Notes: a model not told the origin generated them from the letters alone. Shown: positions 331 to 26,653, counted from the first letter of the stretch. The stretch: 26,653 nucleotides of DNA from an archaeon (GCA_035357435.1 DAOPNM010000004.1:1-26653); one strand, 5' to 3'. Program-made: numbers and translations.

Positions 331-897
331 ATGATACCAAATAAACAACAAACAATTGAAATTTTAAAAAAATATGTAACTAAAGAAGCAAACATAGATC
401 ATTGTTTATTAGTTGGATATGGAATGTTAGGAATATCTAAATATTTAAACAAACCAGAAAATGAACAAGATTATTGGTTTGCTGTAGGAACATTACATGA
501 TATTGATATAGAACTATTTGGAGAAGATATTAAACAACATACTATAATTGGAGAAAAACTATTAAAACAAGAAAATATAGATCCACAAATAATTGAAGAT
601 ATAAAAAGCCACAATGAAGCAATTTATCCTCAAAGAACAAAAGATATTCAACATGCTTTATTTTCTTTAGATGGATTAACTGGAATAATTAGAGCTTATG
701 TTCTTATGAGACCTGATAAAAACATACAAAATGCAGAAACAAAATCAATATTAAAAAAAATTAAAGATAAATATTTTGCAACAGCAATTAATAGAGAAAA
801 AATTCAATTATGCGAAACAACATTAAATATTCCTTTAGAAAAATTTATTGATATAACATTAACAGAAATAAAATTAAATTGGAAAAAAGAAATATGA
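331..897 (+). CDS. HD-superfamily metal-dependent phosphohydrolase
   Basis: 188-aa ORF with an ATG start. It carries a His...HD...D pattern (IDHCLLVG ... GTLHDIDIE) typical of small HD-domain hydrolases. Its TGA stop overlaps the next gene's ATG (ATGA). Confidence 0.7.
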   Translation: MIPNKQQTIEILKKYVTKEANIDHCLLVGYGMLGISKYLNKPENEQDYWFAVGTLHDIDIELFGEDIKQHTIIGEKLLKQENIDPQIIEDIKSHNEAIYPQRTKDIQHALFSLDGLTGIIRAYVLMRPDKNIQNAETKSILKKIKDKYFATAINREKIQLCETTLNIPLEKFIDITLTEIKLNWKKEI

Positions 898-2012
898 CAA
901 ATATTCTTTTTTGTGTGTGTGGATTGGGATTAGGGCATGTAACTAGAAGCTTGTCAATAATTAAATATTATGTAAACAATAAGAATAACAAAATATTTAT
1001 TTATTCAGAAAAAAATGTTTTAGAATTTCTAAAAAATGAATTCCCAAATTATAAAAACATAATATTAATTGAAAACAAAAATCCATATCCTGATTTGGAA
1101 AGAGGAAAAAATAATTTAGAACAAACATATTATATGATAATTGATGGCTTAAATATGCCAAAAATTATAAAAAAAGAAAACAAAATTATTCAAAAAATTA
1201 TACAACAAAATAAAATAGATACAATTATTTCTGATGGAATATACGGGGCATACTCTGAACAAACACCTTGCTTTCTAATAACTCATCAATTGGAATTTCA
1301 AATAAGTGGATTTCGTAAAATATTTGGGAAAATAAGTGATCCTTATAATCTATCTATTTTTAAAAAATATACAAAAATACTTGTTTTAGATTACAAAGAT
1401 GAAAAAATAAGTATTGCTGGAAAATTAGCAACCTCAAAATATAGAAAAAACAAAAAATTTGTGTATGTTGGGATTTTATCACAATATCATAAAATCAAAA
1501 TAAAAAAAGATATTGATTATTTAGTAATAATTAGTGGATACTTAAAAAAACATAAACAAGAATTTTATAACAAACTCTTAAATGTTTTAAAAAAGAAACC
1601 AGGAAAAAAAGTTTTTATCATGGGAGATTACATTAATGATTATCATAAACAACTTCCTGGAAATATAGAAATATATTCTTCATTTAAAAACTTAGACAAA
1701 AACAAAATATATAATAGAGCAAAAATTATTGTTTCTAGAACAGGATATTCAACACTAATGGATTTAGTGGAACTAAATAAAGATGGAATATTAATACCAA
1801 CACCAAATTGTAGTGAACAAGTGTATCTTGGAAAATATCATTTAAACAAAGGATATTTTAATATAATTTTAAATCAAAAAAATATAAATGAAACAACTTT
1901 TAAACATAATTTCCATAATACATATTTAATTAAAAACACTAATTTACCTAAAACAAAAGATAGTATTAAACTAATAACTCAAACAATTGAAAAATATGGA
2001 AAAAAACAATAA
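894..2012 (+). CDS. GT28/MurG-like glycosyltransferase (MJ1255-type)
   Basis: N-terminal Gly-rich loop CGLGLGHVTRS. C-terminal motif IVSRTGYSTLMDLVELNKDGILIPTP..SEQ resembles the Glyco_tran_28_C nucleotide-sugar binding region. The ORF track starts at a TTG (879). I prefer ATG 894, which forms an ATGA overlap with the HD gene stop. Confidence 0.7.
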   Translation: MTNILFCVCGLGLGHVTRSLSIIKYYVNNKNNKIFIYSEKNVLEFLKNEFPNYKNIILIENKNPYPDLERGKNNLEQTYYMIIDGLNMPKIIKKENKIIQKIIQQNKIDTIISDGIYGAYSEQTPCFLITHQLEFQISGFRKIFGKISDPYNLSIFKKYTKILVLDYKDEKISIAGKLATSKYRKNKKFVYVGILSQYHKIKIKKDIDYLVIISGYLKKHKQEFYNKLLNVLKKKPGKKVFIMGDYINDYHKQLPGNIEIYSSFKNLDKNKIYNRAKIIVSRTGYSTLMDLVELNKDGILIPTPNCSEQVYLGKYHLNKGYFNIILNQKNINETTFKHNFHNTYLIKNTNLPKTKDSIKLITQTIEKYGKKQ

Positions 2013-6583: not shown

Positions 6584-8155
6584 ATGGAAAAAAAATATAT
6601 AGAAAATAAATATTATAAAAATTTAAAAGAAATAAATTATAAACAAATTCAAAAAAACAACAATAATATAGAAATAAATACACAAACTTTTTTGGAAATA
6701 TTTACTAAAATAATTCAAAAAAATACACCTAAAGAGAAATTTGGAATATTATTTAGCGGAGGAATAGATTCTCTATTGATTGCATGTATTTGTAAAAATT
6801 TAAAGCTTAATTTTAAATGCTATTTTGCATATGTTGAAGATTTGGGAAAACCAAAAGATTTAGAGTTTGCAGAGTACGCTTGTGAAAAATTAAATTTAGA
6901 ATTAGTAAAAGTACCAATTAAATATACAGAAATGCCAAAAACGATAAATTATGTTTTATCTCAAATTATTATGGAAAATTATATAGATGTAATTTCTGGA
7001 TTGCCTATCTATTATGCATGTAAACAAGCTTCAAAAGAAAAAATTAAAAAAGTAATTGTCGGGTGTGGTGCTGATGAACTATTTTGTGGATATGCAAAAT
7101 TTAAAGATGCAGAAGATATTAATAGCCTTTCATTAAATCTTTTAAAAAAAATGGAAAAAAATAATTTTTATAGAGATTGGAAGATTGGAGAACTAAATGA
7201 TATTGAAATTATTGCACCATATTTAGAAAAAGAAATAATTGACTTTAGTTTATCTCTTAAAAAAGAACAGAAACTTACAAAAAAACAAAATAAAATTATT
7301 TTAAGGAATGCACTTAAAAAAATCTTGCCTGACAAAAAACTTTATGAACGAAAAAAAACAGCTGCACAATATGGTGGGAATTTTGATAAAGGTGTAGATA
7401 AACTTGCAAGGCAAGCAAGATGCCAAGGAAAATTAGAATATTTAAATTTGCTTAAACAAGAAAACAATTTAAAATTAGGGGCATTATATTCTAGTGGTAA
7501 AGATTCAAATATCGCATTGTGGCATATGCAAAAACAAGGGTATGATATTAAATGTTTAATATCTATTATTCCAGAAACAAATGATTCATACATGTATCAA
7601 AAACCAAATTTAAAAATAATAATAGCACAATCAAAAGCACTAGGAATACCATTAATTATTAACAGAACAAAAGGTGAAAAAGAAAAGGAACTTAAAGAAC
7701 TTAAACAAGCATTAATTGAAGCTAAAAAAAAATATAATATACAAGGTGTCATAACAGGGGCATTAGCAAGTAATTATCAAAGAGAAAGAATTCAAAATAT
7801 ATGCAAAGAACTTAAATTAAAATTATTTGCACCATTATGGGGAATGACACAAGAAAATGAATTATTTGAATTACAAAAAAATAAATTTGAATATATTATG
7901 TGTAAAATTTCTGCTAAAGGATTAAACAAAGAATGGTTAAATAAAAAAATAGATTATAAAGATATTGAAAAACTAAAATTATTTAATACAAAATTTGGAT
8001 TTAATATTGCAGGAGAAGGAGGTGAATATGAAACAATTGTTTTAAATGCACCAAATTTTAAACAAAAAATAATTATTGAAAATTCAAAAAAAATTATGGA
8101 AAACGAATGCACAGGATATTTGGATATAAAAAAAATAAAATTGGAAAAAAATTAA
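6584..8155 (+). CDS. two-domain PP-loop ATP-pyrophosphatase: AsnB-type synthetase domain fused to Dph6/MJ0570-type diphthine-ammonia ligase domain
   Basis: The N-terminal half has SGGIDS, GCGADELFCGY, and the AsnB-like tail KIILRNALKKILPDKKLYERKK. The C-terminal half has YSSGKDS, ITGALASNYQRERI, APLWG and GEGGEYET, typical of the MJ0570/Dph6 family. The reading frame is one uninterrupted 523 codons. Confidence 0.75.
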   Translation: MEKKYIENKYYKNLKEINYKQIQKNNNNIEINTQTFLEIFTKIIQKNTPKEKFGILFSGGIDSLLIACICKNLKLNFKCYFAYVEDLGKPKDLEFAEYACEKLNLELVKVPIKYTEMPKTINYVLSQIIMENYIDVISGLPIYYACKQASKEKIKKVIVGCGADELFCGYAKFKDAEDINSLSLNLLKKMEKNNFYRDWKIGELNDIEIIAPYLEKEIIDFSLSLKKEQKLTKKQNKIILRNALKKILPDKKLYERKKTAAQYGGNFDKGVDKLARQARCQGKLEYLNLLKQENNLKLGALYSSGKDSNIALWHMQKQGYDIKCLISIIPETNDSYMYQKPNLKIIIAQSKALGIPLIINRTKGEKEKELKELKQALIEAKKKYNIQGVITGALASNYQRERIQNICKELKLKLFAPLWGMTQENELFELQKNKFEYIMCKISAKGLNKEWLNKKIDYKDIEKLKLFNTKFGFNIAGEGGEYETIVLNAPNFKQKIIIENSKKIMENECTGYLDIKKIKLEKN

Positions 8156-17013: not shown

Positions 17014-20000
17014 TTAATCAAAAGAAGTAAGATAATTTCTTACATGTACAAGTTCTTCTGGGGAATAATAACCTGGTGGTGCAAGGACTACTTTAATTTT
17101 TCTAAAACTTTCTGTATATGCATTTAAACTATACATATATGACTTATTAAGAGCAAGATGTACAAAAGCATCAGACATATCTTGATAATTTCCTAAATAA
17201 AAAATAGCATGACTATAAGGCACGGGTTTACCTCTAAACCTATTTTCACCAACATACACCCCTAAAATTAAACCAGGATATAAATGGTCTAAATTCAAAG
17301 GTTTTCCATCTTCCCAACTCCAAAGAACTTGTGCATCACCTCTTCCTTTTTTTGGTAAATCCCAAGCATTTGCTGATTCCCATTCTATTTTGTTACCAGA
17401 TGAATCAGTACCATAATCATAATATCTATTCCCAAACTTCACTGCAAACCCTGCACAGTGTTTATATCCAACAGGTAAATCCATACATTTTTGTTTAAGT
17501 ATACAATAATTATATTTTGCAATATCTTTTGTTTCAAACAAAGGTGTAGGTACTTTAAAAGGGTATAAATTAAGAGTAAGAGCATGCATTACGGATTTAG
17601 GAAGAACTTCTGTGTTATATATTGTATATGGGTCTATAAATGTTTCCTGAATAATTGCATCATCAAAATTATGCATCATCATTTTATATGTTAAATAATA
17701 AGATAACTTTACAATATCTTGAAATACACCTTCATGTGTTAAATTGCTTGAAATATTAAAAGGTTTATTTTGTGCCAAAAATTTTGTATTAGGATTCCAA
17801 TATTTATAAAATAAAATAAAAGCAGCATCTATTGCCTCATTATTATCATAACTCTCAAACACATTTTTGTCAAAAGTTATTTCTTGTGTATTATTAGATG
17901 GACTTGCTATTAATTTATCTTTATCCCTAGAATACACAGCACCTGCAAACAATACAGATGCATAATTTTTATAATTTATATTTTCTGTTTGTTTCATATA
18001 ATTACATAATGAAACATAATCATCTTTTGTAAAATTACCATCATTAACATCATTTAAAAAACGCATTGGTGTTCTATCCTCTGAAACTAAATAAACTTTA
18101 GGTGCTTCTGTAGAGTCATTGTTTTGAGAAGAAGGTGTTGTTTGATTAGAAGATGAATCAATAATATTAGTATTGTTCAATTCAGAAACTGGCTTAGCCA
18201 AAGATAACAATTTATCTTGTTGGTCCTTAGGCAAACTAGAAAAATCTAAAAAAGAAACATACTTTAAAGAATCTGGAATATCAGAAACAATTTCTGTTAG
18301 AGGTATAATTTTTGAAGAAATTTCTTTTGATAATAATGTATCCTGTAAAATTGGATATTCAATATAACCTATCAAAGGCAACTCAGTATAAATTGTTTGC
18401 TCAGGATCTGTTTGTAATTCTTCTTTTTTAAAAACTAATTCTTGTTCTAAATCAAAAGGATATATCTCATTAAAATTATTATCCGAAAACTTAGCTTTAT
18501 TAAAATAATCTTTTAAACTAATATAACCTTTATCAATTACTTCTTCACTATTACAATAACTCTTCAAATCAACTTGTGCCCAGCCACTATCTTCTTCTTT
18601 AGTAAAACCACCAGTACCATACTCAGAAGTTTGTGCAATTATTGCCCAAAACTGAGCTGTTTCTTCTTCTGTTAACCCATAAAGATTAGCAACATCAAAA
18701 ATAACAGAATTAAAATTAGCTAATTTTTGAAGTTCTTTAGGGTTTGGATTTACTACATATCTCAAATATTTATTAAAATAAATTTCTCTTAAAATATATA
18801 TGTAATACATATCATTATACATTTTATCATAAACACCACCACTAGAAACATGTTTATTAAAAGACAAATTAAATACATCTAAATTTGATAATAAACCACC
18901 TAAATAATCTAAATAAAACTCATCTGTTACTTCTAAATTAACTATCTTTTTTGCAGATCTTGGGCCAATAATATTTCTATAATTTAATGCAAAAGTATCA
19001 TCTTCTGGTAAAAATGTAAAAGGTGTTAAAAACAAATAATCTAGTTCATAATTAGGATTCTGTAAAAATGTATTTTCATCAGCTAAATCATAAAATTTTT
19101 GATTATTAAAACCTGCAGGGCTTATTGGCCCTGTATAATCTAAATGATCTACATTCCCAGCAAATGGTTTATATTGAGCACCTACAATAATAGTAGGAAG
19201 ATTTGTAGGGAAAACTATTTCAACCTTAGAATTAAATTCTTGTAATTTAGAAACTTTAATCTTATACTTATATGGAACAATCTTTGTATTAGAAATACAA
19301 TTTTCATTAACATTTACATCACAAAAATAAATAGTATTTGTATCAATTTCTTTAAAATCAACATCATTTTTAATAAATAAATCTTTTTGCATATATTCTT
19401 TAAAATCAGGAGTTCTAGGTATTCCATAAAAATAAATATAATCTTCTTTATTAAAATCACTATAATTAGAAACCGTTAATATTAACTTTTTAGTATTTGT
19501 TTTTGCCTCTAATGCAAGATTTAATATATTTGAATAATACCCAGGGAAAATCTTTTCAGGAGCTATTGATTCTACAGACAAAGAAAGATCAGATATATAT
19601 GGCTGTATCTTTAATTTAATTTTTTTGTGTGGATCAGTTTTAGAAATTAAAGTTAGAGAAAAACCTTTTGTTAGATCATCAATAGTTATATCCCTTAATT
19701 GCAATGAATTAGTAGGAATAATTGACTTTTTTGCAGATGTGCCAACTAACTTAATATTAAATTCATTTAGGTTTAAAGATACTAAATCATTTTCAGACCA
19801 TTCTAAAGAATCTAAATTCATCTCAAAAAAAGTAAACATAAACTGAAATTTAGAAGAACCTATAGAAGATTTCCCATATAAATTATCAAGTAATATACGT
19901 AAAACAATCTCTTGATTTGCATAATCTACTTCATGGAAATAAGGTAATGTTTTACCTTGAAATAAAATTTCTAAATTAAAATAAACAGGATAATCTAAAA

Positions 20001-20841
20001 CTAAAGATTCATATTGTGGCAATAAATCATTATCATTTATTTTTTTCTTAAAAAAAGAAGCATCTTTATTTGGCTCATCAAACAAATAATTATCCTTTCT
20101 ATAATATTTTCTATCATACTTTAAAAACCCAGACCTTTCAATTTTAGAATATAAAAAATTCTTTTGCAAAACAACATCATTGTTTTCTTTTGCTAGGCCT
20201 GCATAATTTGCATGAGGCGAATTATATTGAAAACCAAATAAATAAAGCGTACCAGGTGCATCAATTACTTTTCCAGGAATTACAAAATCCATATTTGTTT
20301 TTTGTTGAGATGGTGTATATGAAGAAATATAAACATAATTAATTATAAAATAATCTCCTAAAAATAAATCTTGAATATATTTTGAATACTCAAGAGATGA
20401 AATATTAAAAAAATTTGACATTTTTGTTTTATATAAATTATAATAATACATATATTCCTGTTCTGATTCTGCATCTTGGCAACTTTTAATAAGTGAAAAA
20501 ATACCACCTTCTTCAAAATTAGATTTATCATAAACTAAATTAGACAATAATGTTTTAAGTTCAAACTCAGAAACAGACAATTCTTCATCAGCATATGGAT
20601 TATTTGTGTCTTCATCTAATATTGGATAAAATAGTTCATCATCTAAATAAACACCAACTAAATAAAGAGTATTTGTTGTATTTTCTAAACTTAAATTACC
20701 CATAAACACATTTTCTGATAAAAAATAATTTACATCATTTATCTTTAAACCAACATCATCAGATTGTGCAAAAATTGTTGGAAAGATAAATAAAAAAAAC
20801 AAGAAAAAAAACAATGTTTGTATAAAAATATTTTTTTGCAT
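17014..20841 (-). CDS. large secreted protein with C-terminal CHAP/NlpC-P60-like Cys-His hydrolase domain
   Basis: 1275 aa. The signal peptide is MQKNIFIQTLFFFLFFLFIFPTIFA/QSDD. The protein is Asn/Tyr-rich with many N-x-S/T sequons. C-terminal pattern (aa ~1115-1235): YKHCAGFAV...ESANAWDL...PGLILGVYVGE...YSHAIFYLG. Weak SLT-like motif at aa ~715-760: LYGLTEEETAQFWAIIAQTSEYG...GWAQV. Confidence 0.8.
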   Translation of the reverse strand: MQKNIFIQTLFFFLFFLFIFPTIFAQSDDVGLKINDVNYFLSENVFMGNLSLENTTNTLYLVGVYLDDELFYPILDEDTNNPYADEELSVSEFELKTLLSNLVYDKSNFEEGGIFSLIKSCQDAESEQEYMYYYNLYKTKMSNFFNISSLEYSKYIQDLFLGDYFIINYVYISSYTPSQQKTNMDFVIPGKVIDAPGTLYLFGFQYNSPHANYAGLAKENNDVVLQKNFLYSKIERSGFLKYDRKYYRKDNYLFDEPNKDASFFKKKINDNDLLPQYESLVLDYPVYFNLEILFQGKTLPYFHEVDYANQEIVLRILLDNLYGKSSIGSSKFQFMFTFFEMNLDSLEWSENDLVSLNLNEFNIKLVGTSAKKSIIPTNSLQLRDITIDDLTKGFSLTLISKTDPHKKIKLKIQPYISDLSLSVESIAPEKIFPGYYSNILNLALEAKTNTKKLILTVSNYSDFNKEDYIYFYGIPRTPDFKEYMQKDLFIKNDVDFKEIDTNTIYFCDVNVNENCISNTKIVPYKYKIKVSKLQEFNSKVEIVFPTNLPTIIVGAQYKPFAGNVDHLDYTGPISPAGFNNQKFYDLADENTFLQNPNYELDYLFLTPFTFLPEDDTFALNYRNIIGPRSAKKIVNLEVTDEFYLDYLGGLLSNLDVFNLSFNKHVSSGGVYDKMYNDMYYIYILREIYFNKYLRYVVNPNPKELQKLANFNSVIFDVANLYGLTEEETAQFWAIIAQTSEYGTGGFTKEEDSGWAQVDLKSYCNSEEVIDKGYISLKDYFNKAKFSDNNFNEIYPFDLEQELVFKKEELQTDPEQTIYTELPLIGYIEYPILQDTLLSKEISSKIIPLTEIVSDIPDSLKYVSFLDFSSLPKDQQDKLLSLAKPVSELNNTNIIDSSSNQTTPSSQNNDSTEAPKVYLVSEDRTPMRFLNDVNDGNFTKDDYVSLCNYMKQTENINYKNYASVLFAGAVYSRDKDKLIASPSNNTQEITFDKNVFESYDNNEAIDAAFILFYKYWNPNTKFLAQNKPFNISSNLTHEGVFQDIVKLSYYLTYKMMMHNFDDAIIQETFIDPYTIYNTEVLPKSVMHALTLNLYPFKVPTPLFETKDIAKYNYCILKQKCMDLPVGYKHCAGFAVKFGNRYYDYGTDSSGNKIEWESANAWDLPKKGRGDAQVLWSWEDGKPLNLDHLYPGLILGVYVGENRFRGKPVPYSHAIFYLGNYQDMSDAFVHLALNKSYMYSLNAYTESFRKIKVVLAPPGYYSPEELVHVRNYLTSFD

Positions 20842-20919
20842 AAAATTATCTTTTATTTATTTTAAATGTTTTGTTTTTTTGAATTATTTATATTCGAATA
20901 ATATTTAATACATAAAAAT

Positions 20920-20959
20920 ATATTTAATTTAAACCAAAACATATTTAATTTAAACCAAA
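20920..20959. repeat. tandem direct repeat, 2 x ATATTTAATTTAAACCAAA (21-nt period), in a divergent intergenic region
   Basis: Copies at 20920-20938 and 20941-20959, read directly. Confidence 0.85.
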
Positions 20960-25157: not shown

Positions 25158-25230
25158 GGGGACATGAGGCAACCAGGCAACCTTGCTGGCTCCAGACCAG
25201 CGTATTCGGGTTCAAATCCCGATGTCCCCA
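25158..25230 (+). tRNA. tRNA-Trp (anticodon CCA), intron-less
   Basis: Acceptor GGGGACA/TGTCCCC, discriminator A, U8, A14, G18G19, anticodon stem GCTGG/CCAGC with loop CTCCAGA, T-arm TCGGG-TTCAAAT-CCCGA. Confidence 0.9.
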
Positions 25231-25466: not shown

Positions 25467-26653
25467 TTATCTTTTAGAGGCTTTAGAAATATCTGATTTT
25501 GAAGAGGATATAGTTGGAGTGGTATCACTTGATGTTGCCTGTAAAACTTTTAAACCATTGCTGTCTTTGATAACTATTGGAACTGGAGAAATATCTGTGT
25601 GTATTGGAACATTTGGCTTTTTTATTTTAATTTCTGATTGAGAAGGAGTTACAGACATTCCTTTTATTGTAATTGTTGAGGTGGCAGTGGATTGCAACAA
25701 AGTGGTTGAATCTTTTATCTTTAAAGTAATGACTCTTGTCTTTGGAGTTAAACTTGTTAAACCTAGTTGCTTAGGAGTTGCTGTGAAATTACATTGCTCA
25801 GATATTGGGTTTGTTTGATTGTCTGAATACCATTTACAAGATATATTACCAACATTGTTTATGTAACCTGCTGTGAAGGCAATTGGTTCTGTTTGATTAA
25901 ATATAGAACCAGATATTGGGGAAGATATATAAGCTGTTAAAAATCCTTGTGGATCTATACCTACACCATAATCTATAATAATATTTACAGAATCTGATGC
26001 TTCATGATAACTGTCTGTTAGTTTCAAAGTGATTGTATGGGAACCTACTGACATGTTTAGATGTTCAGGGGTTCTCTGAAATGTACATAGGGAATTAAAT
26101 GGGGTTGTTGAATCATCTAAATACCATTTACAACTATATGAACCAACTGCGTTTTGATGAGTTTCTGTAAAGCTTAATATTTGGTTTCTTGGATAGATCT
26201 CTCCTTCGTGGGGAGATGTTATTTGTACTTCTAATGGATATTCTATAATGTTTACATCACTTACACTTGTTATTACTTCTCGTCCTAGAGAATCTTTTAG
26301 CTTTAATGTGATTTCTTGTATACCTTGTGAAATACCTAAATTATATGGACTATTTGTAAAGTTACATGCTTGAGAAATTAGATTACCTTGATAATACCAA
26401 TTACAATCTACATTTCCAACATTGTTGTTATGAGTTTCTGTAAAAGAAATATTGCTATAATAATTATAAGTGTTTCCTGAAATAGGTGATGTGATTTGTA
26501 CTTCTAATGGAAGTGGAAGAACTTCAATAGTTACTTGGGCTGTTGATGTTTGATTGGAATATTCATCTTTCACTGTTAAGTTTAAAGTAACATTACCTAC
26601 TGGAAGATTAAGAGCTTGAGGAGTATTTGTAAAATTACAATCTGTACTTATGG
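25467..26653 (-). CDS. surface/secreted repeat protein, 5'-truncated by the window edge (Ig-like ~91-aa repeats with a conserved Cys pair)
   Basis: The frame stays open from the GTG listed at 26573 to the window end, and the upstream residues (CNFTNTPQALNLPVGNVTLNLTVKD) continue the repeat. There are three full repeats plus one partial. Each has (L)EVQITSP.xG, SFTETH.N.VG..xC.WY, C.F...P..L and ITLKLxD. The 18-nt string ATTTGTACTTCTAATGGA recurs at 26221 and 26494, 273 nt apart. Confidence 0.8.
   Translation of the reverse strand, partial: ISTDCNFTNTPQALNLPVGNVTLNLTVKDEYSNQTSTAQVTIEVLPLPLEVQITSPISGNTYNYYSNISFTETHNNNVGNVDCNWYYQGNLISQACNFTNSPYNLGISQGIQEITLKLKDSLGREVITSVSDVNIIEYPLEVQITSPHEGEIYPRNQILSFTETHQNAVGSYSCKWYLDDSTTPFNSLCTFQRTPEHLNMSVGSHTITLKLTDSYHEASDSVNIIIDYGVGIDPQGFLTAYISSPISGSIFNQTEPIAFTAGYINNVGNISCKWYSDNQTNPISEQCNFTATPKQLGLTSLTPKTRVITLKIKDSTTLLQSTATSTITIKGMSVTPSQSEIKIKKPNVPIHTDISPVPIVIKDSNGLKVLQATSSDTTPTISSSKSDISKASKR

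Follow-up and report, generated by a model that had tools for sequence, protein, structure and literature searches.

A giant, probably exported protein of a DPANN archaeon combines divergent lysozyme-like and NlpC/P60-like modules and may engage the wall of another cell

What does a small-genome archaeon do with a giant protein that no housekeeping role explains? The question arises from a 26,653-nucleotide stretch of archaeal DNA (GCA_035357435.1, DAOPNM010000004.1:1-26653; hereafter the window), whose longest open reading frame (ORF), at 17014-20841 on the minus strand, encodes 1275 amino acids (aa). An inspection made from the DNA alone (the sequence-only reading) had named it the largest gene of the window and one without a housekeeping explanation, and both statements hold. 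Because a stop codon is expected about every 12 codons at the base composition of the window (~25% G+C), the chance of a frame of this length remaining open is ~1e-48. Our analysis points to a Sec-exported, fast-diversifying surface or extracellular protein of a DPANN archaeon (Iainarchaeota-like lineage), built to engage the peptidoglycan-type wall of another cell, a reading to which we give a probability of about 0.6. The parts of the gene on which the argument rests are these:

17014..20841, minus strand: complete coding sequence, 1275 aa, with an ATG start and its stop codon at 17014-17016 (ORF list and translation)
20767..20841, minus strand: predicted Sec signal peptide, aa 1-25, composed of MQK, a 20-residue hydrophobic core and P-T-I-F-A, then QSDD
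18802..20766, minus strand: hypervariable N-terminal body, aa 26-680, with no recognisable domain
19015..19293, minus strand: short conserved patch in the body, aa 517-609, including FLQNPNYELDYLFLTPF (phmmer)
18460..18801, minus strand: lysozyme/SLT-like N-lobe, aa 681-794, EETAQFWAIIAQ-T-SEYG ... GWAQVD (family alignments A1 and A4)
18628..18630, minus strand: codon of Thr738, at the position of the family's catalytic Glu (AQ-T-S against AQ-E-S in relatives)
18037..18459, minus strand: lineage-specific insertion of ~140 aa, aa 795-935, including a Ser/Asn/Thr/Gln-rich linker
17617..18036, minus strand: lysozyme/SLT-like C-lobe, aa 936-1075, YASVLFAGAVY ... AIDAAFILFYKY ... KLSYYLTYK
17017..17559, minus strand: divergent NlpC/P60-like (papain-fold) Cys-His domain, aa ~1095-1275 (conservation, model, Foldseek, hhalign)
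17455-17457, 17209-17211 and 17158-17160, minus strand: codons of the proposed triad Cys1129, His1211 and His1228

Searches of Pfam, NCBIfam and PDB sequences returned zero matches to the whole protein or to six sub-segments, even at E <= 10, and PHROGs gave only one irrelevant weak match, to a nudix hydrolase (E = 0.03). A word-indexed search of 5.8 billion proteins with the full-length query retrieved nothing beyond P0001, a twin of 98% identity encoded on a syntenic contig, while alignments used as queries found 3 proteins each; two other assemblies contain the 98%-identical copy amid the same neighbour genes. Exhaustive phmmer comparison of aa 76-1275 with 1.84 billion cluster representatives yielded 10 matches at E <= 1e-3, the best at 3e-19. 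One of them, P0004, is spurious: this protein of LamG repeats matched aa 277-330 six times and was discarded as a compositional or repeat artefact. Local re-alignment with the relatives left four conserved pieces (aa 517-609, 687-794, 936-1069 and 1110-1273), and by sequence similarity the relatives define two modules in the window protein, one lysozyme-like and the other a Cys-His domain. The sequence-only reading had guessed an SLT-like and a CHAP/NlpC-P60-like domain; both guesses stand at the superfamily level, and neither stands as membership of a named Pfam family, since CHAP, NLPC_P60 and SLT gave no match at E <= 10.

The C-terminal motifs were correctly read, namely HCAGFAV with Cys1129, ANAWD with Trp1160, PGLILGVYVGE, and YSHAIFYLG with His1211. 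In an alignment of eight divergent sequences, with 23-29% identity to the window copy, Cys1129 and His1211 never vary (8/8), nor do Trp1160, Gly1190 and Tyr1209, and a third column 17 residues past the His reads H/N/D/D/H/H/N/N, with His1228 in the window protein. An AlphaFold model of the domain, built from a 6-sequence alignment, reached a predicted local distance difference test score (pLDDT) of 66.9 and a predicted template-modelling score (pTM) of 0.75. In the model, Cys1129 lies at a helix N-terminus, His1211 starts a beta-strand and His1228 ends the next strand, a predicted topology that is a papain-like arrangement with the conserved Cys, His and third polar residue characteristic of the fold. 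When the model was compared with PDB structures by Foldseek, the CHAP endolysin Ly7917 occupied ranks 1-4 (E = 0.02, best 0.021, probability 0.92), followed at lower ranks by the NlpC/P60 entries 3m1u, 4hpe, 3h41 and 2im9, PlyC, staphopain and a phage CHAP domain. Among BFVD structures the leading matches were an endolysin and an NLP/P60 protein, together with further endolysin, CHAP and NlpC/P60 proteins (E = 0.005-0.07, best 0.0046; probability <= 0.99).

Profile-profile comparison favoured one of the two candidates. With hhalign, the Cys-His family showed no link to a CHAP reference of 9 phage endolysins, for which the LysK query sequence was confirmed at 100% identity (score 13.2, P = 0.31), whereas a reference of 10 phage NlpC/P60 hydrolases scored 23.8 (P = 0.0042). 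In the latter alignment His1211 falls on the catalytic His and His1228 on the third His (IHA), and the extended alignment places HCAGFAV on DCSGF, Cys on Cys, with the whole triad in register. Reversed or unrelated profiles scored 9.5-15.7, and none of 400 column shuffles (200 per profile) reached 23.8, their maximum being 21.7; for comparison, CHAP against NlpC/P60, which are known remote relatives, scored 40.6 (P = 2.4e-6). The earlier CHAP/NlpC-P60 assignment is thus retained for the NlpC/P60 superfamily and dropped for CHAP and for both Pfam families. Searched with its own profile against PDB sequences, the Cys-His family gave nothing but a spurious flagellin match (E = 0.08-0.56), and in Pfam, at E <= 10, neither the last 200 or 300 aa of the window protein nor any of 8 family members had a match. 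We take the domain, whose triad looks intact, to represent a putative new family that lies far out within the NlpC/P60 (papain-like) superfamily, apparently nearer to NlpC/P60 than to CHAP and outside both Pfam families; it would be expected to act as a peptidase.

Compared with NlpC/P60 proteins (PF00877; Escherichia coli MepS/Spr, Bacillus LytF and CwlS), the family keeps the order Cys ... His ... His/Asn/Asp, and its hCaGFa, PG-ilG-y, YsH-a-yLG and fvH motifs resemble DCSGF, PGDLvFF, HVGIYlG and iHA. However, it lacks the N-terminal Y-x-G-x-PY-x-WGG and carries a DAW motif and longer insertions instead, and its His is separated from the third residue by 17 positions as against ~11 in the NlpC/P60 reference alignment. 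Standalone homologues of ~200 aa without a signal peptide also exist (P0011-P0013, at L005 5316-5903, L018 2728-3327 and L006 328-915). A DEAD/ResIII helicase gene is found upstream of the gene in L005 and L018, and in L005 the gene is followed by an arginase/agmatinase gene, with deoxyhypusine synthase and Orn/Arg decarboxylase genes nearby; from this gene context, the standalone form may be a cytoplasmic amidase tied to polyamine metabolism.

The second module had been glimpsed as a loose resemblance to the lytic transglycosylase core. Its motif, AQFWAIIAQTSEYG...GWAQV, is indeed found within nt 18562-18699, and the proposed extent of aa 715-760 does contain it; the module itself is far larger, spanning aa 681-794 and 936-1075 on either side of the insertion. 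The C-lobe (aa 936-1075) gave phmmer matches to 7 relatives, with Tyr, Phe and Lys columns invariant in A4. The segment between the lobes, aa 795-935, is missing from all relatives and was modelled at pLDDT < 50; as the two lobes are contiguous in every relative, this insertion is private to the window protein. The relatives' consensus reads EETAQFWAI-AQES--G ... G-AQIN--W in the N-lobe and YASV-FG-AIY ... KDAIDAMFA-GYKY ... KL-YYL-YK in the C-lobe.

Three lines of comparison connect this family to lysozymes. The A1/A4 family profile retrieved from the PDB 259-261 distinct C-type lysozyme and alpha-lactalbumin sequences and essentially nothing else (best E = 0.004, range 0.004-0.012), with the family's E-S on the Glu35-Ser36 region of hen lysozyme. 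When 13 family members were scanned singly against Pfam, Lys was matched most often (4/13, best E = 3e-4), SLT by three (best E = 0.017, sub-threshold) and Phage_lysozyme2 by two (best E = 4.4e-4); these were the three families matched by the most members, all of them belong to the lysozyme clan, every match was below the gathering threshold, and the window copy matched none of the three in this single-sequence scan. Against an SLT/GH23 reference alignment of nine phage proteins retrieved by tblastn, hhalign gave a score of 38.0 (P = 5.9e-5, probability 65%), placing AQES on the catalytic ES of SLT and G-AQIN on GLMQ, while unrelated profiles scored 11.9-13.8, the reversed target 11.5, and 0/150 column shuffles exceeded 16.5. 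These comparisons suggest that the module belongs to the SLT/lysozyme superfamily, at that level and not to the Pfam SLT family. A low-confidence AlphaFold model (pLDDT 43, pTM 0.47) gave two Foldseek matches at E = 5-10, both to the catalytic domain of the Ralstonia A-471 chitinase, which we do not take as evidence.

What the window copy lacks is the catalytic residue. The catalytic-Glu column, which aligns with Glu35 of hen lysozyme and with the ES of SLT, holds Glu in 13/15 distinct family modules and Thr only in the window protein (Thr738) and its 98% twin, a lineage sampled in three independent assemblies; the AQ-T-SEYG motif is identical in P0001, and the 98%-identical locus L010 gave no further distinct variant. 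The SLT-like proposal therefore stands for the superfamily, with neither the catalytic Glu nor a Pfam SLT match. Because Thr738 replaces a Glu kept in nearly all relatives, the module is probably dead as a glycosidase, and because the window copy retains the other invariant residues of the family (A4), it is probably a folded, non-cleaving, glycan-binding module. As to the proposed SLT plus CHAP architecture, the chemistry of a bifunctional hydrolase is probably absent, given Thr738, and a binding module joined to one peptidase appears more likely.

The two modules recur at a fixed genomic address. Scanning GTDB genomes and metagenomes with the EETAQFWAI motif revealed 11 loci, all archaeal where named, one of them a Candidatus Iainarchaeum metagenome-assembled genome (MAG; phylum Iainarchaeota, DPANN). 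Viral contigs scanned with the lysozyme-like motif contained no relative, and a prophage or viral origin was rejected on that empty scan. In all six of the long loci the order is the same: AspRS, CysRS, giant protein(s), Kae1, orf105, PTH2 ... Hjc, DnaG. Flanking proteins are mostly 59-75% identical to those of the window (range 44-81%) and the two modules 23-37%, while the N-terminal bodies are unalignable. The window's own neighbours are archaeal (Kae1, PTH2, Topo VI A and B, RIO kinase, a KH/Dim2-like protein, CysRS and AspRS), and further archaeal-type genes encode a DnaG-type Toprim protein, Hjc, a presenilin-type signal-peptide peptidase (SPP) and diphthamide synthase; together with the relatives in archaeal MAGs, they support the small-genome archaeal setting assumed at the outset.

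Within this slot the architecture varies widely. Lysozyme-like and Cys-His modules are joined in the window protein, P0002 and P0006; in L007, L008, L009 and L004 the Cys-His domain comes first and the lysozyme-like module sits in an overlapping second ORF. P0003 combines the lysozyme-like module with a canonical NlpC/P60 domain (hhalign probability 96%, P = 1e-9) and a leucine-rich repeat (LRR) region, and similar NlpC/P60 motifs occur in L015. In P0007 (L013 4453-7539) an FGE-sulfatase-like domain (formylglycine-generating enzyme fold) at residues 785-914 takes the peptidase's place (Pfam E = 2.6e-7). P0005 and L017 have the lysozyme-like module alone, and L012, L013, L015 and L017 hold tandem paralogues. 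The lysozyme-like and Cys-His modules thus co-occur in both orders and also as adjacent ORFs. That a lysozyme-like module should be coupled to an NlpC/P60-type peptidase time after time, whichever comes first and with peptidases from two families, speaks for a common substrate of the murein type.

Two of these arrangements deserve description in their own right. L012 (4189-11224) carries two giant paralogues in tandem between CysRS and Kae1, the first of 1034 codons stop to stop (P0006, 1023 aa) with lysozyme-like and Cys-His modules, the other of 1303 codons stop to stop with only the Cys-His domain and a C-terminus, ...YLTSFD, as in the window protein. In L007 (2198-5463), and also in L008, L009 and L004, the positional orthologue is split into two ORFs: in L007 the first, of 783 aa, comprises signal peptide, body and Cys-His domain, and the second, of 309 aa and lysozyme-like, shares 16 nt with it in a different reading frame and lacks its own signal peptide. 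The second-ORF start, MWESL or MWLTL, recurs in three divergent proteins (P0008, P0014 and P0015), which were accordingly rejected as independent single-domain genes, each being the second ORF of a split positional orthologue. Judging from the overlap, the two halves could be joined by translational coupling or programmed frameshifting.

Comparison with the L001 strain showed an excess of amino-acid change in the giant gene. It differs by 21 nonsynonymous and 7 synonymous substitutions (10 and 1 in the body alone), as against 1 nonsynonymous and 10 synonymous in six neighbouring genes (5.4 kb), a contrast with Fisher p = 2.6e-4. By these counts the gene appears to evolve far faster than its slot neighbours, as expected for a protein in contact with host or prey; small as the counts are, the difference is what relaxed or diversifying selection on a surface protein would produce.

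Export is indicated by the N-terminus. In the hydropathy profile the sole strongly hydrophobic segment of the protein is aa 1-25 (MQKNIFIQTLFFFLFFLFIFPTIFA, then QSDD), with Pro at -5, Ile at -3 and Ala at -1 of the predicted cleavage site, and all full-length relatives have comparable N-termini, several of them ending in (V/I)(F/Y)A. The signal peptide noted earlier is accordingly confirmed as a hydrophobic segment echoed in relatives; its cleavage would fall after Ala25, before Gln26. Downstream, the body (aa 26-680) gave no match in Pfam, NCBIfam, PHROG or PDB searches and cannot be aligned with the bodies of positional orthologues save for aa 517-609, a patch common to two relatives, P0010 (E = 6e-13) and P0003 (residues 399-431), by phmmer. 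With that exception, the earlier statement that some 700 N-terminal residues match nothing is correct. The protein is also Asn- and Tyr-rich as described (8.4% and 7.8%, compared with 6.2% and 4.4% in the other 23 window ORFs). Its supposed wealth of N-glycosylation sequons was not borne out: the 13 N-x-S/T sites equal the 12.8 +/- 3.3 expected from composition-preserving shuffles, and enrichment was rejected as compositional only.

These parts suggest a course of action for the protein. The N-terminal signal peptide would export it through Sec, and the ~650-residue hypervariable body could serve as a stalk or adhesin. The lysozyme/SLT-like module, having lost its Glu (Thr738) and gained the 140-aa insertion, would bind glycan strands as a targeting device and is most likely not a glycosidase, while the NlpC/P60-like domain, through Cys1129-His1211-His1228, would cut an amide bond in the peptide stems as an endopeptidase or amidase. 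The outcome would be a murein wall of a partner or prey cell that is opened or gripped. The substrate would then be bacterial murein, and the protein may serve to attach to a host or neighbour, to feed on it or to kill it.

Several points weigh against this interpretation. No single test of the Cys-His domain is conventionally significant; it has no Pfam or PDB sequence match, HH-suite's own probability for its relation to NlpC/P60 is only 8%, and although the structural comparison put endolysins of the CHAP and NlpC/P60 type at the top, all matches had E >= 0.0046 and TM-scores (template-modelling scores) of 0.25-0.39, with none in PDB or BFVD at E < 1e-3 or TM > 0.5. The lysozyme-like fold is without structural confirmation, its model reaching only pLDDT 43, and Glu740, two residues downstream of Thr738 (T-S-E), could conceivably replace the lost Glu. 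The nonsynonymous-to-synonymous contrast rests on 39 substitutions. P0011-P0013 have no signal peptides and lie beside helicase and arginase genes, and hence the Cys-His domain is not intrinsically a wall hydrolase. More generally, papain-fold domains include transglutaminases and acyltransferases, GH23-like folds act on chitin too, and known DPANN hosts are mostly archaea without murein.

In one alternative, which we consider unlikely, the target is an archaeal envelope and not bacterial murein: pseudomurein, the glycosylated S-layer or another sugar-peptide polymer of an archaeal host, or else the envelope of the producing cell itself as it divides or attaches. On this view the peptidase would work in the manner of a pseudomurein endoisopeptidase while its dead lysozyme-like partner module bound glycan, so that loss of the Glu would be tolerable. 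PeiW and PeiP, the pseudomurein endoisopeptidases, are also Cys-His-Asp thiol enzymes, and the constant presence of the gene at a fixed locus in the lineage suits a core role in cell biology. However, sister proteins keep the Glu of a beta-1,4 muramidase or transglycosylase-type module, whereas the beta-1,3 links of pseudomurein resist lysozymes; orthologues carry a canonical bacterial-type NlpC/P60 domain in the same slot; and the extreme divergence and nonsynonymous excess are more in keeping with an interface that is antagonistic or specific to a partner than with an enzyme for housekeeping remodelling. Cultivated DPANN archaea, as described in PMC8204110 and PMC11537232, are episymbionts of other archaea, which does favour an archaeal target.

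Two further alternatives concern catalysis itself, and we regard each as quite improbable. If the protein were a pure adhesin or surface coat protein, both enzyme-like modules would be non-catalytic binding relics, in keeping with the missing Glu and the 140-aa insertion, with an unalignable, fast-evolving body that makes up most of the protein, and with slot architectures that are freely shuffled (LRR, FGE-sulfatase-like, or no peptidase). Yet the Glu persists in most modules of the lysozyme-like family, and the Cys-His domain preserves Cys1129, His1211, an H/N/D third position, Trp1160, Gly1190 and Tyr1209 in every one of eight sequences at 23-29% identity, a column conservation that is hard to explain without catalysis. 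Alternatively, the Cys-His domain could perform other papain-fold chemistry on a surface protein, such as transglutaminase-like cross-linking, acyl transfer or the hydrolysis of a small-molecule amide, for example a polyamine conjugate. The signal-peptide-less homologues beside arginase/agmatinase and near deoxyhypusine synthase and Orn/Arg decarboxylase genes speak for this, as does the lack of sequence membership in Pfam CHAP or NLPC_P60, and the CHAP domain of glutathionylspermidine amidase acts on polyamine amides with the same fold. But in secreted proteins the Cys-His domain is in every case joined to or next to a lysozyme-like module, or stands where a canonical NlpC/P60 domain would, and its best structural neighbours are endolysins. 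An exported protein that engages a peptidoglycan-type wall therefore remains our preferred reading.

We would extend that reading to the locus only as a conjecture, and a doubtful one: the CysRS-Kae1 slot may be a dedicated, hypervariable host-interface locus in which wall-targeting modules (SLT-like, two NlpC/P60-like kinds, LRR and FGE-sulfatase-like) are reassembled over and over into a secreted giant protein. In the same tentative scheme the Cys-His domain would be an undescribed, DPANN-specific family of the NlpC/P60 superfamily with secreted and cytoplasmic forms, the latter possibly linked to polyamines, and the window's transglycosylase would have turned into a non-catalytic targeting domain.

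The concept of secreted archaeal proteins aimed at cell walls is already known. Large extracellular murein-transglycosylase-like proteins have been described from small-genome Pacearchaeota and Woesearchaeota (PMC8204110; the GH23 proteins of Vigneron et al. 2022, PMC9723730), and their role has been interpreted as the binding or degradation of bacterial walls. The window protein resembles these (fam00969 in PMC8204110, and those of PMC9723730) in its very large size, signal peptide, small-genome DPANN origin and lysozyme/SLT-superfamily module, in being mostly unannotatable, and in the proposed role of binding or degrading a foreign wall. It differs in its Iainarchaeota-like lineage, in the absence of the catalytic Glu from the window copy, and in carrying an NlpC/P60-like domain, which the portions of these two papers at hand do not mention. 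Since Pfam SLT is blind to the window protein and sub-threshold for its relatives, the family is probably separate from, and more divergent than, fam00969, with which it was compared by description only.

Experiments have shown that some peptidoglycan hydrolases secreted by archaea kill bacteria (PMC12352652); according to the primer PMC12356512, these enzymes were found by a homology-based approach. They share with the window protein secretion by an archaeon, an ancestry among bacterial wall hydrolases and a possible antagonistic use; the window protein differs in coming from an uncultured DPANN lineage and in having no Pfam or NCBIfam match. A third likeness is to the modular peptidoglycan hydrolases of bacteria and phages (staphylococcal LysK-type endolysins, phage tail lysins, T7-like gp16 and SPbeta-type giant wall hydrolases), which likewise carry a glycan-directed module and a papain-fold Cys-His peptidase on one polypeptide and which include the nearest structures to the Cys-His domain in Foldseek. 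Unlike these, the window protein has no sequence-level membership in their families, an archaeal host, a glycosidase predicted to be inactive, a ~650-aa hypervariable body, and a Sec signal in place of delivery by holin or virion. What is new is a family that neither Pfam nor NCBIfam picks up, present in an Iainarchaeota-like lineage, an NlpC/P60-like domain family without any Pfam match, the natural loss of a glycosidase Glu, and a fixed hypervariable genomic slot.

Little has been established about the ways in which DPANN archaea fasten onto other cells and exploit them, and the idea that some of them prey on bacteria so far rests on annotation alone. The locus offers parts that can be tested, namely a ~180-aa C-terminal domain with a predicted Cys-His-His triad and a natural Glu-to-Thr variant of a transglycosylase-like module beside Glu-bearing orthologues. 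Its fixed CysRS-Kae1 address makes the interface protein findable in related genomes and usable for the study of diversification. As Pfam and NCBIfam miss both modules completely, surveys of archaeal peptidoglycan hydrolases may undercount. Were the slot indeed a host-interface locus, it would open a practical molecular route to studying the recognition and breaching of a bacterial partner by a DPANN archaeon.

Upstream of the giant gene lies one further feature:

20915..20956, unstranded: two tandem 21-nt direct repeats, AAAA(T/C)ATATTTAATTTAAACC, 95% identical (repeat search)

These repeats fall 74-115 nt before the start codon of the giant gene, within the 247 nt that separate it from the divergently oriented CysRS gene, and by their position are possibly duplicated promoter or operator elements.

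Elsewhere in the window, a single 523-aa ORF (6584-8155, plus strand) joins an Asn_synthase-like (PP-loop ATPase) N-terminal region to a diphthamide synthase domain, and a glycosyltransferase with a GT28/MurG-type C-terminal domain (879-2012, plus strand) could, from its domain match, be an Alg13/14-like N-glycosylation enzyme or be related to the synthesis of a wall polymer. ARAGORN places a tRNA-Trp(CCA) at 25158-25230 on the plus strand, but its score falls short of the Rfam tRNA gathering threshold, which the two tRNAs at 4-214 do reach. Finally, a 368-aa ORF on the minus strand (25467-26573), whose true N-terminus may be cut by the window edge, has weak sub-threshold matches to Big_7, PKD and PKD_3 and is probably another surface protein.

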